Positions 1 to 5,927 of a DNA stretch of 5,982 bases are shown here, piece after piece. Positions within the stretch are counted from its first letter, which is position 1; the number at the start of each line of letters is the position of its first letter. Under the pieces are notes generated by a model. That model saw only the letters and a program-made list of their open reading frames with translations, had not been told where the DNA came from and ran no database searches. A program made the translations under genes and the position numbers. This stretch comes from a virus (lineage: Duplodnaviria > Heunggongvirae > Uroviricota > Caudoviricetes): IMG/VR virus record IMGVR_UViG_2734482004_000009. One strand, given 5' to 3'.

Positions 1-1196
1 TTTCAGGGCCTTATTCAGCTCTTTCTGACGGGCGGTATATTTATCCAGCGGCGTCTGCAGGCGCTCATACGCCTTCTGCGCCTCTCCGGTATACTTCAGC
101 TGTGACGACTCACGCTCAGCCCTGTCCCTTGCCGCCAGTTCACCGGCTTTTTCCATATCCGACTGCAGCGTGGCCGCTGCCAGACCCAGACGGGCATTTT
201 CCCGGTCATCCCATGCCCCCTGAAGGTTCGCACGAAAAGAGGAGGTCTTTCCCCGGCGCTGGCTCCGGCTCTGGTACCACTGCCATTTTTTATCCGCCTC
301 ATCAAATGCCTTCTGCGCACTGGCGAGCATATCCGCTGAGGATTCCGGACGACCGATATCCAGAATGGCATCCCACATCGATTTGAATGCCTTCCCTGTT
401 TTATCCGCCCAGGTCTCCAGTGTTCCCATGTTTTCTTTCAGGCGACGGGTCTGCTCATCAAAGCCTTTCGTGGCGATATCGTTCGCCGCCTGCAATGCCC
501 CGGCCTCGTCTCCGGAACGCTGCAGCTGTGCAACATACGCAATCTGCTCTGCCGTCACGTTACGGAACTGGCGCGCCATCGCCATCAGTCCCGACGTCGG
601 GTCAGTGGTCAGCTTCCCGAAGGCTTCAGCGACTTTATCCACCTCNNNNNNNNNNNNNNNNNNNNNNNNNNNNGCCCGGCTCTTGAGAGCGTCAGCATAC
701 GATCGGCAGTCAGTCCGGCCTGATTGCCGGAAAGGACCAGCGTTTTATTAAATTCTGAAAGCGTGGCGTCGCCCTGGTACCAGGCGTACGCCAGCGCACC
801 TGTCGCCACCGCCAGCGAGGTGACCCCGACCATCGGCAGGGTGATCGCACCGGCAAGCCCCCTGAACATGGGGATCATCCCGCCGAAGGAGTCCTTCACC
901 TGACCGCCCTGTTGCAGCAGGATCAACCAGGGATTCTGACCACCGGCAAGCTGCGTGGCGATATCCGTAAACTGTGCGGGCAGGGTTCGCATGGCCGCTT
1001 TATACTGCCCGACGGAAATCCCGGCTTTTTGTGCAGCCAGCGCCTGGCGGCTCAGGCCCTGTTCAACAGCACTGGCGGTTTTTCTGGCGTCGGTATCCAG
1101 ACCTGAAAAATGACGCCTTACCCGGCTCATCTGCTCATCGAAACGGACAGCATCCAGACTCAGGTCAATAACAAGATCACCAACCGGCTGGGACAT
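1..1196 (-). CDS. H: Tail tape measure protein gpH, N-terminal ~400 codons; 3' end lies beyond the window start; interrupted by the N-run at 646-673
   Basis: ATG at 1194-1196 with a GGGAGGTG Shine-Dalgarno about 8 nt upstream. The translation MSQPVGDLVIDLSLDAVRFDEQ... matches the lambda gpH N-terminus as I recall it. Below the N-run the reading continues in a different frame (codons ending at 645, 642 ... down to 1-3) as EVDKVAEAFGKLTTDPTSGLMAMARQF... and LETWADKTGKAFKSMWDAIL, still gpH-like and with no stop before position 1. The ORF-track stop at 609 is an artefact of the frame break in the gap. Confidence 0.92.
646..673. other. Run of 28 N (assembly gap or masked bases) inside H
   Basis: Literal N characters in the sequence. 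The H reading frame differs by one position on the two sides, so the true length is probably not 28. Confidence 0.99.
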
Positions 1197-2821: not shown

Positions 2822-3217
2822 TCACATCTCGTATGTAATGGAATAAGTCAGATCTGCAGAACTCCATAACGCCATATCGTCATCACGACGATACTCATAG
2901 CCCTGCGTAACCATCGTGGTAATCAGTCCTGCCAGTGCCGGGATCGCGGTCATCGCCGGGTAAATCCGGCTTTCCATCCACTGATCAAGCTCTGAATCCG
3001 GTACCTGTGCCGGTAAAAACACCTCAATATGCAGCGTGGCCCGCCAGGTATCTGCATCCAGCTCTTCACCGGTATACTCTGCATCCGTCAGATAAACCGC
3101 GATCGCAGGAAAATCCTCTTCGTCAAAAACAACGGGGCGACCATCAAACAGCGTCGCCCCGTGTTCATGCTGCTCGAGTGCATCCAGCACTGCGGCACGA
3201 ATGTCAGTGTGTTTCAT
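2822..3217 (-). CDS. U: Tail terminator protein gpU
   Basis: 131-aa [57 protein letters not shown]..., same length as and near-identical to lambda gpU. Its start overlaps the Z stop in an ATGA arrangement (3214-3217). Confidence 0.95.
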
Positions 3218-3747
3218 CGTTTTATTGCAATCCTCAGTTGTTGTTTCAGCGCGTATGCCAGTTCTTTAGGCAGGCGTTCACGCCGGATACGGTCAACATT
3301 CTCATCAAATGCCTGTTTCAGTGGGGCCGCCATCGGGATTTTCACCACATCAATGGGGTAACGGTTTTTCCCGGCCACACGCTGCATGACATGCCAGCGA
3401 CCATTTTTTAATCTCTGAATAAATGCCCGCTGATACCGATGCTGACCGGCTTTAAGTATGCTGTTCGGGCGACGCCCCAGCATCCTGATCCCCAGCTTAA
3501 TCACAGGGAGATCACCGCGGTTAACGATAATTCTGGCATTCGGATTTCTGACCGTCGCCCGTTTCAGTCTGGACCGTTCCTTAACCAGTTTCCGGCGAAC
3601 CTTTGTCTCCCGGGCAACCTGTGATGAAGACTGATTAATCGCCGTTGTGGCCACGCGGTTAATGGCCATTGCTGAAGCCGCCGGAATGGCGTTTTTACGA
3701 ACCCGGCTCAGATTGTCAATCGCCTGATCAAGCCCTTTTATCGCCAT
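3214..3747 (-). CDS. Z: Minor tail / tail completion protein gpZ
   Basis: 177-aa ORF, MAIKGLDQAIDNLSRVRKNAIPAASAMAINRVATTAINQSSSQVARETKVRRKLVKERSRLKRATV...GRWHVMQRVAGKNRYPIDVVKIPMAAPL..., matching lambda gpZ. ATG at 3745-3747, 15 nt after the FII stop. Confidence 0.93.
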   Translation of the reverse strand: MAIKGLDQAIDNLSRVRKNAIPAASAMAINRVATTAINQSSSQVARETKVRRKLVKERSRLKRATVRNPNARIIVNRGDLPVIKLGIRMLGRRPNSILKAGQHRYQRAFIQRLKNGRWHVMQRVAGKNRYPIDVVKIPMAAPLKQAFDENVDRIRRERLPKELAYALKQQLRIAIKR

Positions 3748-3762
3748 AATTTCACCCTGCGT

Positions 3763-4116
3763 TTATCGTCGCCGGTTAACTGCGGGTGGTTGACCACGGT
3801 TGAGCCAGAGATAACAGCTGCCCCCGTCATCCGGAGAAACACGATCCACCCAGAATATCTCACCATTAATGGTCAGCGTGTCACCACGCCGCACGGCACG
3901 AACCGTATCCGTCCGCACAAATAATGACGGGCTGCTTCCTTCAATACGGACCCCGCCACCGGCAAACCCCAGCGACTCCGGATCATCAAAAACCCCCTGA
4001 ACTTCGCTGCCACACTGTGCCCCCGAGGTGAACTGCGCACAGAGCCCCATCACTTCAACGATCGTACTGTCTACCCCGGCGAGGGCAGCATCAAAGGCAT
4101 TCTGAAAATCACGCAT
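3763..4116 (-). CDS. FII: Head-tail joining protein gpFII
   Basis: 117-aa ORF, MRDFQNAFDAALAGV...GVFDDPESLGFAGGGVRIEGSSPSLFVRTDTVRAVRRGDTLTINGEIFWVDRVSPDDGGSCYLWLNRGQPPAVNRRR, matching lambda gpFII (same length). The start overlaps the 3' end of FI by 8 nt. Confidence 0.93.
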   Translation of the reverse strand: MRDFQNAFDAALAGVDSTIVEVMGLCAQFTSGAQCGSEVQGVFDDPESLGFAGGGVRIEGSSPSLFVRTDTVRAVRRGDTLTINGEIFWVDRVSPDDGGSCYLWLNRGQPPAVNRRR

Positions 4117-4492
4117 ATTCAGCCGTTCCGTGCTGTATCATGGCCGTTGCCAGTGATGATGGCACCAGAACACGCATACCCCGTAACGCCAGCTCAACGG
4201 GACGACCTGTCTCCGGGCAATACCCCATTACTTGCAGGCACTTCCGTACCCGGACGGCTTTAACATCATCCGGAGCATCCGTGTTGTTCAACTGCTCACC
4301 ATCGTCTGTGTGATTTTGATCAGCCCCGCTCTCATCAGAGTGCATAATGCCCTCCGGGGAAACAGCAAGCTCCTCTTCCCACTCAGACACACGTTGAGCA
4401 ATATCCGCAGCACTCCCCGACATATCCGCCTCGCGCCCCAGCAGGTCAGCCAGTTGACGAAGACGATTCAGATTTTCTTCTTTTGTTGCCAT
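4109..4492 (-). CDS. FI: DNA packaging / head maturation protein gpFI
   Basis: ORF with an acidic, gpFI-like sequence (MATKEENLNRLRQLADLLGRE...). Preferred start is the ATG at 4490-4492, preceded by AGGAGG (plus 4498-4503, 5-nt spacer). The longer ORF-track start at 4540 is a GTG with no ribosome-binding site, and the extension would be encoded by the intergenic hairpin. Confidence 0.85.
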   Translation of the reverse strand: MATKEENLNRLRQLADLLGREADMSGSAADIAQRVSEWEEELAVSPEGIMHSDESGADQNHTDDGEQLNNTDAPDDVKAVRVRKCLQVMGYCPETGRPVELALRGMRVLVPSSLATAMIQHGTAEYA

Positions 4493-4504
4493 CTCAGCCT
4501 CCTG

Positions 4505-4535
4505 TGAAAAAAGACACGGGGGCATTTCGCCCCCG
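4505..4535 (-). terminator. Candidate intrinsic terminator or RNA-stabilising hairpin between E and FI
   Basis: Minus-strand RNA reads CGGGGGC-GAAAU-GCCCCCG: a 7-bp all-GC stem (plus 4517-4523 pairing with 4529-4535) and a 5-nt loop, followed by UGUCUUUUUUCA (plus 4505-4516). It sits 9 nt after the E stop and just upstream of the FI ribosome-binding site. Confidence 0.5.
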
Positions 4536-4543
4536 CTCACGGA

Positions 4544-5562
4544 TTATTTCACCTGTACCACCACAAACTCATCCGGATCCGGCAGCACCATCAGCGGAGC
4601 GGACTGCGTCATGGTGAATTCACAGGACGGATCGCCCACGGTCAGCCAGTGTTTCGGGTAACGGGAAGAAGCCACCACTCCTTCAGACAACGCCTGTGCA
4701 TCCTTAATGGCACCATAGCAACGAATCCCCTCTGCCGCCGTATTCCCCAACACCAGCATGCCCTCCGGCAGATAACGTTTTTCGGTACCGTCCTCTGCCA
4801 CATAAGACGTTTTCGCCACCACAATGGCCAGATCGCCGTAATACCCCTTGAAGGACACCACTGCGCCCAGATCTTTCACTGCCGTTTCGAGTTGTGAATT
4901 TGAGCCGCGACGGGTATCCAGTTTTTCGCGGAACAGCTTAAAGCCATTCAGCAGACGCCAGACCGTACCGTCCATAATGGCGATATTCACAAGGCCGCTG
5001 GCCTGATCGCAGTAGAGGTCAATATCATGCGTCGGATCAAACGTATCACGGTCCTGCTCAGACCATTTTTTACCGTCAGCCTGCTCAATGTTATTTCCTT
5101 CAGAGCGCCCGAAATCCACCTCGACAGTATCAAACTGATCCCCTTCCATGGTGTATTTGCCATACAGCACGGCATTCACCGCCTGCATTTCTTCCACCTG
5201 GACAATGGCGTGCTCTTCCTGTTTGAGGTTATCGGTAATGATACGCAGACGACGGTAGGCCGGGTCGTTCAGCTGAGCCGGATCTTCACCAGGAAGGCGC
5301 TCAACCGCCTGCTGGTAATTAAATTCGTGTTTCGGCTTGACGTAGCCCGGACGTAACACGCGGGTTTCACCACCGCGATGGCGAAGCACTTTTCCTTCAA
5401 CGATCGGGGAGACATAGGCCGCCACCGGCGTTTTTCCGGTAATTTTGTCCAGCATCACCTCTTCGGTGTGGAAATTCACCGTACGGCGGAAAAACAGCTC
5501 CAGAAACAGCGCACGGAATTTCACTTTTTGTTCGGTATAACCNNNNNNNNNNAGGCCACCAT
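4544..5562 (-). CDS. E: Major capsid protein gpE; 5' end unresolved because of the N-run at 5543-5552
   Basis: Continuous frame from the gap to the TAA at 4544-4546 encodes ...GYTEQKVKFRALFLELFF...PGYVKPKHE...DPAYRRLRI...VQVEEMQAVNAVLYGKYTM...KLDTRRGSNSQLETAVKDLG...EFTMTQSAPLMVLPDPDEFVVVQVK, recognisably lambda gpE-like. The ORF-track start at 5524 is an internal GTG. The true start lies in or just beyond the gap; an ATG sits at 5560-5562 inside the palindrome but is out of frame if the gap is exactly 10 nt. The upper boundary is therefore approximate. Confidence 0.9.
5543..5552. other. Run of 10 N at the 5' end of E
   Basis: Literal Ns. Confidence 0.99.
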
Positions 5563-5570
5563 GGTGGCCT
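5553..5570. repeat. 18-bp perfect palindrome AGGCCACCATGGTGGCCT in the D-E intergenic region, abutting the N-run
   Basis: The sequence equals its own reverse complement. It lies 9 nt after the D stop and contains CCATGG and TGGCCA. Confidence 0.7.
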
Positions 5571-5579
5571 GATAACGTG

Positions 5580-5927
5580 TTACGGCAGAGCCGCGTGACT
5601 CAGGGCTGTGCCGGCAAAGGCATTTGCCTTTTTGTGTTCATCCACACTGTCAGGCCAGCGGATTGCCTCCGTCGCAAAGGTCCCCGACTTGTAATAGGTC
5701 AGCACCGTCTCTGTGCCTTCAAGCGGCAGTACCAGTATGCCAACCGCACTACCGGCTTTCTGTCCATCCCAGACCACCAGTTTCCCGGTGGCTTCATCCA
5801 GCATCAGGGGCGTCAGAGCCGGTGTTGCAGAAGAAATCCCGCTGCTGCCTGTGGCGGTATGAGCCGGATCATTACCGGCAAAAATACGTACTTCCGCACG
5901 CTGTTCAGTGATGGTTTTCGTCACCAT
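5580..5927 (-). CDS. D: Head decoration protein gpD
   Basis: 115-aa ORF containing ...NDPAHTAT...TPLMLDEATGKLVVWDG...AVGILVLP...YYKSGTF...AFAGTA..., the conserved blocks of lambda gpD. ATG at 5925-5927 with GAGG about 13 nt upstream, 4 nt after the upstream stop. Confidence 0.9.
   Translation of the reverse strand: MVTKTITEQRAEVRIFAGNDPAHTATGSSGISSATPALTPLMLDEATGKLVVWDGQKAGSAVGILVLPLEGTETVLTYYKSGTFATEAIRWPDSVDEHKKANAFAGTALSHAALP

Follow-up and report, generated by a model that had tools for sequence, protein, structure and literature searches.

Why should a terminator-like hairpin stand directly past the major capsid gene in an operon that is transcribed by a terminator-resistant polymerase? 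Late transcription in phage 21 and lambda depends on a Q-modified RNA polymerase that resists terminators, and what sets the ratios of the late proteins in lambda is an old question, answered mainly at the level of translation initiation. The stretch of viral DNA analyzed here in its entirety (5,982 nt, IMG/VR record IMGVR_UViG_2734482004_000009, referred to as the window) raises this question at the junction between the major capsid gene E and the packaging gene FI, where a preliminary description, made from the sequence, had placed a GC-rich hairpin and proposed that it acts as a partial terminator or a barrier to 3' exonucleases. Should the hairpin determine how abundant capsid message is relative to the message downstream, it would be part of how a single late transcript of more than 20 kb gives very unequal amounts of protein; our literature search found no direct study of the E-FI hairpin of either lambda or phage 21.

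Gene content of the window

All genes in the window lie on the minus strand and, judged by their open reading frames and Pfam matches, form a lambda-like head-tail module. The features that define the E-FI junction are as follows.

5580..5927, minus strand: shp, head decoration gene and homologue of lambda D (Pfam HDPD, 5.7e-25; aligns with phage 21 shp)
4544..5542, minus strand: major capsid gene E, corresponding to phage 21 gene 7 (open reading frame at 4544..5524; Pfam Phage_cap_E, 7.2e-63; comparison with phage 21 gene 7)
4546-4544, minus strand: stop codon of E, UAA (read from the sequence)
4493..4543, minus strand: E-FI intercistronic spacer, 51 nt (read from the sequence)
4109..4492, minus strand: gene for the DNA-packaging protein FI (Pfam Packaging_FI, 3e-14; RefSeq annotation gpFI)
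4492-4490, minus strand: ATG of FI (read from the sequence)

The Pfam matches on either side of the spacer bear out the gene identities, E and FI, that had been assigned in the preliminary description. Upstream, shp leads the two cistrons (shp and E) for the abundant capsid proteins, and 3' of FI there follow, in order, FII, Z, U, V, G, T, and the start of H. The preliminary description supposed that FI is required at catalytic level only; the FI product is considered a packaging chaperone in a 2026 review, which states no copy number for it.

Three runs of N interrupt the window (646-673, 2533-2542, and 5543-5552). The last of these, 10 N long, stands for approximately 60 nt of phage 21, comprising the remainder of the shp-E spacer, the ribosome-binding site of E and the first ~14 E codons; the true start of E is lost within this run, and the readable portion of the gene amounts to 326 codons plus the stop. 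Phage 21 is the nearest named phage, with ~89% identity across window positions 4371-5000 by megablast. This match stops at ~4371, within FI, and the 3' two-thirds of FI are unlike phage 21 ORF1, which places a mosaic joint inside FI.

A stable stem-loop in the E-FI spacer

Between the E stop codon and the start of FI, the spacer contains the following elements.

4516..4536, minus strand: RNA stem-loop of seven G-C pairs, from C4535-G4517 to C4529-G4523, with the loop GAAAU at 4528-4524
4507..4516, minus strand: U-rich tail UGUCUUUUUU (read from the sequence)
4497..4502, minus strand: Shine-Dalgarno (SD) sequence of FI, AGGAGG, 4 nt upstream of the ATG (read from the sequence)

The hairpin begins 7 to 8 nt past the E stop codon, depending on an optional basal wobble pair (G4536-U4516) that extends the stem. 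The tail reads (U)GUCUUUUUU, with U at six of the first eight nucleotides past the extended stem and with G, U, and C as the three bases nearest to it, and it is confined to the sense side, there being no T-tract beyond the stem on the antisense strand. The preliminary description was exact in both the sequence and the coordinates of this terminator-like, GC-rich hairpin with its U-rich tail on the mRNA strand.

By several measures, the fold stands out from its surroundings. The 21-nt hairpin alone has a predicted energy of -16.8 kcal/mol and a 54-nt fold of the spacer one of -22.9 kcal/mol (z = -3.3, with none of 200 dinucleotide shuffles equaling it), both far stronger than the -8 kcal/mol that the preliminary description had named as the threshold for refuting its proposal; in a 147-nt context the stem pairs have probabilities of ~0.9. 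The hairpin is also the best match in the window in a terminator scan, which credits it with nine pairs, seven of them GC, and no comparable feature, defined as a perfect stem made up of 7 or more GC pairs with T at 7 or more of the 10 positions that follow, occurs on either strand of 300 windows simulated with a first-order Markov model. Judged from its sequence and conservation (see below), the RNA stem-loop that the late-mRNA strand forms in the spacer is genuine and under selection.

How well would such a stem-loop terminate transcription? Intrinsic terminators have GC-rich stems of ~5 to 14 bp and loops of 3 to 8 nt, ranges that include the seven G-C pairs (eight to nine pairs with wobbles) and the 5-nt loop seen here, and the position is likewise that of a terminator: on the transcribed strand, in noncoding sequence, between the E stop and the FI SD. 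In intrinsic terminators, a U-tract of ~7 to 9 nt follows the stem directly, and its stem-proximal residues matter most. The G, U, and C next to this stem predict at best moderate intrinsic termination, and the tail scores -3.08, compared with -7.15 for a pure U15 tail and -1.7 for mixed sequence. RNA polymerase in its unmodified form would probably terminate only partially at a tail of this type. A scan for sigma-70-like promoters found none in the entire window, on which grounds we reject an internal promoter in the spacer, and an Rfam scan of the whole window at E values up to 10 returned no match overlapping 4493-4543.

Conservation among close relatives

The E-FI spacer is identical to that of phage 21 save for two bases in the segment from the SD to the ATG. 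To gauge its conservation, we use 81 close relatives, consisting of phage 21 and 80 IMG/VR loci whose E proteins are 98 to 100% identical. Within this set the hairpin core is unaltered in 78 and the stem in 79 members, the three exceptions in the core being a change of C4535 to U (which retains a G-U pair), the deletion of a single G, and one change in the loop. The remaining variation falls in the 5' flank, in the SD region (where FI SD variants AGGGGG, AGAGGG, and AGGAGA are found), and, in one relative, in the U run, which there reads UUUAUU. Conservation extends to four Escherichia coli prophages whose 301-nt junctions are ~88% identical to the window and in all of which the sequence is preserved from the stop codon to the end of the U-tract. 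The junction of E. coli strain 120899 is 100% identical to the window over these 301 nt.

The junction is also widespread. A 301-nt query spanning it is matched in 1,563 of 5,426 complete E. coli genomes, usually at a single place in each (median, 1; maximum, 5), and among the matches listed, every place is annotated as major capsid protein on one side and gpFI on the other. The junction is therefore common without being a dispersed repeat, and we reject a REP-like identity on the same grounds. With an element this frequent, a single experiment would generalize widely.

Counterparts in lambda, N15, HK97, and P22

The preliminary description had left open whether lambda itself has an equivalent; the answer is that lambda has a positional counterpart, but one that differs in sequence from the hairpin of the window. 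The lambda E-FI spacer reads UAA-UC-AUGGCCC-UUCG-GGGCCAU-UGUUUCUCUG-UGGAGGAGUCC-AUG, and the corresponding hairpin of N15 and phi80 is GUGGCCC-(AUUC or UGUC)-GGGCCAC. Within this lambda group, the basal pair is A-U in lambda, G-U in IMG/VR variants of lambda, and G-C in N15 and phi80, a series that in sequence terms is a standard compensatory path, i.e., covariation.

The resemblance of the window to lambda and N15 lies in position and architecture. In each case, the hairpin occupies the junction between the major capsid gene and FI on the sense strand, consists of a 7-bp GC-rich stem with a loop of 4 to 5 nt, starts 3 to 10 nt past the stop codon, and is followed by a pyrimidine-rich tail and then by the FI SD. 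The sequences themselves are unrelated: the 21-type hairpin (GCGGGGGC-GAAAU) differs in both stem and loop from AUGGCCC-UUCG and GUGGCCC-AUUC and is not homologous in sequence to its counterpart in lambda or N15, and the capsid proteins are only ~60% identical. The tails differ as well, in that the 21-type U run (U6) is longer than those of lambda (UGUUUCUCUG) and N15 (CUUUCUGG) and uninterrupted, which gives the 21-type hairpin the more terminator-like appearance.

Several of these elements have been annotated. The N15 record (NC_001901) contains a stem_loop described as "putative rho-indep. transcription terminator" after each of genes 7 and 8, that between gene 8 and gene 9 being located at 7053-7073. 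The HK97 record has a "terminator, putative" directly past the major head gene 5, and the P22 record has a stem_loop directly past the coat gene 5, labeled [quoted passage not shown] HK97 and P22 resemble the window in having a GC-rich hairpin with a U-rich tail directly past the major capsid gene of a late operon under Q-type antitermination, and the stem in P22 (AGGGGC/GCCCCU) is similar to that of the 21-type, although their capsid families and downstream genes are unrelated to those of the window and their annotations are predictions. In the phage 21 records that we examined, the hairpin is unannotated.

Such post-capsid stem-loops can be defined as compact GC-rich hairpins on the mRNA strand in the spacer directly 3' of the capsid gene, a description that the hairpin of the window fits, and since it is position and structure that delimit the class, a mismatch in sequence is no bar to membership. 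On this definition, we classify the hairpin as the phage-21-type member of the stem-loops found directly past the major capsid gene in lambda-like phages. Given the lambda counterpart and the annotations in N15, HK97, and P22, the element is not novel: its exact sequence is already present in the phage 21 GenBank entry M81255, and the class to which it belongs is already present in the N15, HK97, and P22 records.

Survey of E-family head modules

We surveyed 18 E-family head modules, taken down a tblastn ranking with structure ignored in the choice and with capsid identities reaching down to ~26%. The sample consists of lambda, 21, N15, phi80, Aeromonas phage PhAER-5, Pseudomonas phage ZRG1, Vibrio phage K290, Nitratiruptor phage NrS-4, and ten Casjensviridae (including Xylella phage Salvo); with 10 of the 18 drawn from the Casjensviridae, the lineages are not phylogenetically independent. 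A compact GC-rich hairpin is located 3 to 30 nt past the capsid stop codon in 17 of the 18 modules, NrS-4 being the sole module without a convincing post-capsid hairpin.

The post-capsid junction is set apart from the 80 other junctions of the same loci in both length and folding. Its spacers have a median length of 59 nt, versus 2 nt at the other junctions, many of which overlap by 1 to 8 nt, and its best hairpins have a median of -16.7 kcal/mol versus -5.9 kcal/mol elsewhere (Mann-Whitney P of ~1e-10, noting that longer spacers offer more windows for folding and that the values were copied by hand). The hairpin is a specific feature of this junction.

The sequences of the hairpins are unrelated between lineages, and we regard the hairpins of different lineages as nonhomologous. 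Their tails vary widely: U occupies six of the first eight positions in the window and in MA11, five in lambda, at most four elsewhere, and none in Salvo and K290, and the U-tract is also poor in E21, KPN U2874, and YSD1, such that in about half of the lineages it is poor or absent. Several features of the hairpins favor RNA over DNA as the level at which they act. G-U pairs make up 16 of the 168 stem pairs across the sampled hairpins; 6 of the 14 tetraloops are UNCG or GNRA, compared with the ~8% expected by chance according to our own calculation; and stability is greater on the sense than on the antisense strand (Wilcoxon P = 0.0013), a comparison that is biased in that hairpin boundaries were picked on the sense strand. 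Together with the one-sided U tail and the position of the mosaic joint inside FI, these features suggest that selection acts on the sense-strand mRNA and not on a DNA palindrome.

Proposed function and alternatives

The role that we lean toward for the hairpin is to form or protect the 3' end of the shp-E message, thereby keeping capsid message above downstream message. The GC-rich hairpin and its U-rich tail would terminate those polymerases that lack the Q modification or have lost it, whereas Q antitermination would let most polymerases read through. Following endonucleolytic cleavage downstream, the hairpin, standing 8 nt past the E stop, would block 3'-to-5' exonucleases, and as an outcome the message for the capsid and decoration proteins would outlast and outnumber that for FI and the genes beyond. 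We infer all three elements of this proposal, namely, termination, exonuclease blocking, and an effect on the E:FI ratio.

The idea of a partial terminator or 3'-exonuclease barrier advanced in the preliminary description fits the comparative pattern, both in the specificity of the hairpin for this junction and in the apparent selection on the sense strand. Its two halves fare differently. Termination is unlikely to be the function shared by post-capsid hairpins because about half of the relatives are without a usable U-tract, which favors the barrier half of the proposal. For a stabilizer of mRNA 3' ends, the hairpin is appropriately placed, being a stable structure at the 3' boundary of shp-E, and no U-tract is needed. 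Post-capsid hairpins would then be weak terminators in those phages that have a U-tract and, in the general case, exonuclease barriers. As a counterpoint, a ribosome terminating at the E stop codon would hinder cotranscriptional folding, since it would cover the 5' arm of the hairpin, which starts only 7 to 8 nt further on. Moreover, Sampson et al. in 1988 reportedly traced differences in expression among the late genes of lambda chiefly to translation initiation; if this attribution is correct, the contribution made at the mRNA level may be small.

The breadth of the phenomenon (17 of 18 modules, plus HK97 and P22), combined with the frequent lack of a U-tract, points to a post-transcriptional role, and a more general proposal can be framed on this basis, which we offer tentatively. 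Post-capsid hairpins might constitute a near-universal, RNA-level punctuation of E-family modules, found by convergence in HK97/P22-type modules also, that acts post-transcriptionally, either as an exonuclease barrier or as a breaker of translational coupling, to set how much capsid protein is made relative to accessory proteins. The Q-antiterminated polymerase would ignore such a hairpin, and the released RNA would make use of it.

Among the alternatives to 3'-end formation or protection, the hairpin could be purely a safety terminator, stopping polymerases not modified by Q (those engaged in spurious transcription in the lysogen or active prior to Q) and so silencing the packaging and tail genes, with no part in lytic stoichiometry or message stability. 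The 21-type hairpin lends itself to this interpretation, being among the most terminator-like of the 18 in its six U residues within the first eight positions and its tail score, in addition to its rank at the top of the terminator scan. Nevertheless, we judge this explanation improbable, in view of the positional equivalents, about half of which have little or no U-tract (from the complete lack in Salvo and K290 to the poor tracts of E21, KPN U2874, and YSD1). A stop that operates in lysogens would, furthermore, be useless in the 10 Casjensviridae modules if these phages are virulent, as we assume those in the sample to be; a safety device of this kind leaves unexplained why the hairpin is placed specifically past the capsid gene and not where the late region begins; and no promoter-like site is found anywhere in the window. 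A role in translation is a poorer prospect still. The hairpin and long spacer would uncouple FI initiation from the ribosome traffic ending at E, with an outer helix masking part of the FI SD unless a terminating ribosome melts that helix. At most other late-gene junctions the genes overlap, and their translation is probably coupled; the post-capsid junction alone is long within these tight modules; also, the minimum free energy fold of the spacer contains an outer helix, pairing UCC-GUGA (just past the E stop) with UCAC-AGGA, in which the central bases of the SD are mostly paired (unpaired probabilities of 0.02 to 0.14 in an 87-nt context). The outer helix, however, finds no support in natural variation, in that substitutions of U4539 to G and of G to A in the SD break pairs without compensation and only A to G is compatible with wobble pairing. 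In addition, the accessibility of the SD varies with the length of the folded context, and lambda has no equivalent helix. Hairpins also follow D in lambda, 21, N15, phi80, K290, and PspYZU01, where insulation would be needless because E is required in an amount equal to or greater than that of D.

Two further readings, each of which we consider highly improbable, dispense with an RNA function altogether. As an inverted repeat at a gene boundary, the core could instead operate at the level of DNA, as a palindromic protein-binding site, a cruciform, or a boundary for recombination, and mosaic joints in lambdoid phages do often fall at gene boundaries. The joint with phage 21, however, lies at ~4371 within FI and away from the hairpin, leading us to discard a mosaic or recombination boundary at this site. 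We reject a palindrome acting as DNA on account of the G-U pairs of the stems, which correspond to A-C mismatches in the complementary strand, the RNA-specific UNCG and GNRA loops, and the one-sided U-rich tail, and because the hairpin sequences are unrelated between lineages, there can be no common protein-binding site. Alternatively, the hairpin could be a chance GC-rich inverted repeat devoid of function, a reading that draws on the abundance of terminator-like matches under lenient settings (10 in the window against 5.5 expected) and on the rank of the hairpin, which comes fourth when the coding strand is folded locally in 32-nt pieces, the three stronger folds residing inside genes. None of the shuffles folds equally well, however, none of the simulated windows contains a comparable feature, and the hairpin recurs in 17 of 18 modules as well as in HK97 and P22; the comparative data effectively refute the chance reading.

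Analogous elements

The formation or protection of a capsid message 3' end by a hairpin would have parallels in both bacteria and phages. The REP sequence in malE-malF and the hairpin of the puf operon are intercistronic stabilizers of mRNA that act as barriers to 3'-to-5' exonucleases and need no U-tract. As in these systems, the stable hairpin of the window lies where the upstream cistrons, which are those with the higher expression, come to their 3' end, and the likeness extends to its many relatives that have no U-tract. REP elements differ in being dispersed repeats, whereas the junction of the window has a median of one place per genome, between capsid gene and gpFI among the matches listed.

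Within phages, the terminator T-phi of T7 lies directly past the capsid gene 10, and experiments show that the abundance of transcripts falls downstream of it (PMC6938266). Like the element in the window, T-phi is a stem-loop with a U-run directly past the structural gene whose product is needed most abundantly; it differs in acting on T7 RNA polymerase and not on a Q-modified host polymerase, with no antitermination, and in that extra promoters also boost gene 10. In phage L, a terminator ends the procapsid module inside the late operon, and either partial termination or a stop to spurious, nonantiterminated transcription has been suggested (PMC8022706). Weak terminators that allow read-through have been proposed to help in tuning phage transcription (PMC9163698). 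As a compact element, the hairpin of the window is also a candidate part for the engineering of phages and operons.

The shp-E junction

The preliminary description held the E-FI spacer to be the only substantial noncoding stretch of the window. This does not hold, as the shp-E spacer (57 nt in phage 21) is noncoding too and has a hairpin of its own.

5553..5572, minus strand: companion hairpin just past the shp stop, with the palindrome AGGCCACCAUGGUGGCCU at 5570-5553 and a possible extension from U5572

The 3' flank of this companion is hidden by the N run at 5543-5552, as is most of the shp-E spacer. At the shp-E junction of phage 21, this stem is likewise present, closed by a CGCG loop (-17.8 kcal/mol) and with no U-tract after it, and the D-E junction of lambda, N15, and phi80 has a different terminator-like hairpin followed by U7.

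Additional predicted structures in the window

Three further inverted repeats lie on the minus strand of the window, as follows.

3163..3132, minus strand: top local fold of the coding strand, inside tail gene U (codons ~19 to 29)
5570..5553, minus strand: perfect 18-nt palindrome AGGCCACCAUGGUGGCCU in the spacer between the head decoration gene shp and the major capsid gene E, 9 nt 3' of the shp stop codon
1599..1568, minus strand: GC-rich hairpin GCGCGUGAG...CUGGCGCGC, just 3' of the G stop codon

The fold within gene U (−20.8 kcal/mol in 32 nt), than which there is no stronger local fold on the coding strand, consists of a 10-bp GC stem (ACGGGGCGAC/GUCGCCCCGU) with a loop of ~10 nt, followed by UGUUUUUGA. 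Across both 21-type and lambda-type loci in IMG/VR, its core, GGGGCGACGCTGTTTGATGGTCGCCCC, is nearly invariant while the flanking codons vary; the exceptions are occasional single-nucleotide changes, located in either loop or stem, and one deletion of a single G. The fold may represent a structured or terminator-like element within a coding region, or it may merely reflect conservation of the encoded peptide, GATLFDGRP.

At the shp-E palindrome, phage 21 has the same stem but a CGCG loop in place of the CAUG of the window, a swap that keeps the palindrome perfect in both phages. In phage 21, no U-tract follows the shp-E palindrome, whereas lambda, N15, and phi80 carry at the corresponding shp(D)-E junction a hairpin with U7 in its stead.

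Beyond the G stop codon, the hairpin (−19.9 kcal/mol) is preceded at a distance of ~36 nt by GGGAAAG, the slippery sequence of G/GT (at about 1641 to 1635). This distance seems too great for the hairpin to be a classical frameshift stimulator.

Punctuation of the major tail gene

Besides the one after its major head gene 5, the record of HK97 (L183) annotates three putative terminators, as follows.

HK97 3693-3720, 4444-4463, and 5399-5423: putative terminators

These are placed on either side of the major tail subunit gene and also after the gp15 moron. In the window, by contrast, the junction between V and G measures just 13 nt, too short to accommodate a hairpin, such that the major tail gene lacks the kind of punctuation seen at the capsid gene.

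Mosaicism and sequence gaps

Nucleotide similarity between the window and phage 21 stops at about 4371, about 120 nt into the packaging gene FI (4109-4492), and the FI of the window is therefore mosaic, with its 3' part derived from a different FI allele. Over the full 901-nt query (window 4100-5000), which includes all of FI, the related phages PhiR12_1 to PhiR12_5 show a ~98% match to the window.

The window also contains three runs of N, as follows.

646-673, 2533-2542, and 5543-5552: N runs

The last of these replaces about 60 nt of phage 21 sequence, including the E ribosome-binding site and first ~14 codons, and E thus appears to lack a start and the shp-E spacer appears shorter than it really is.
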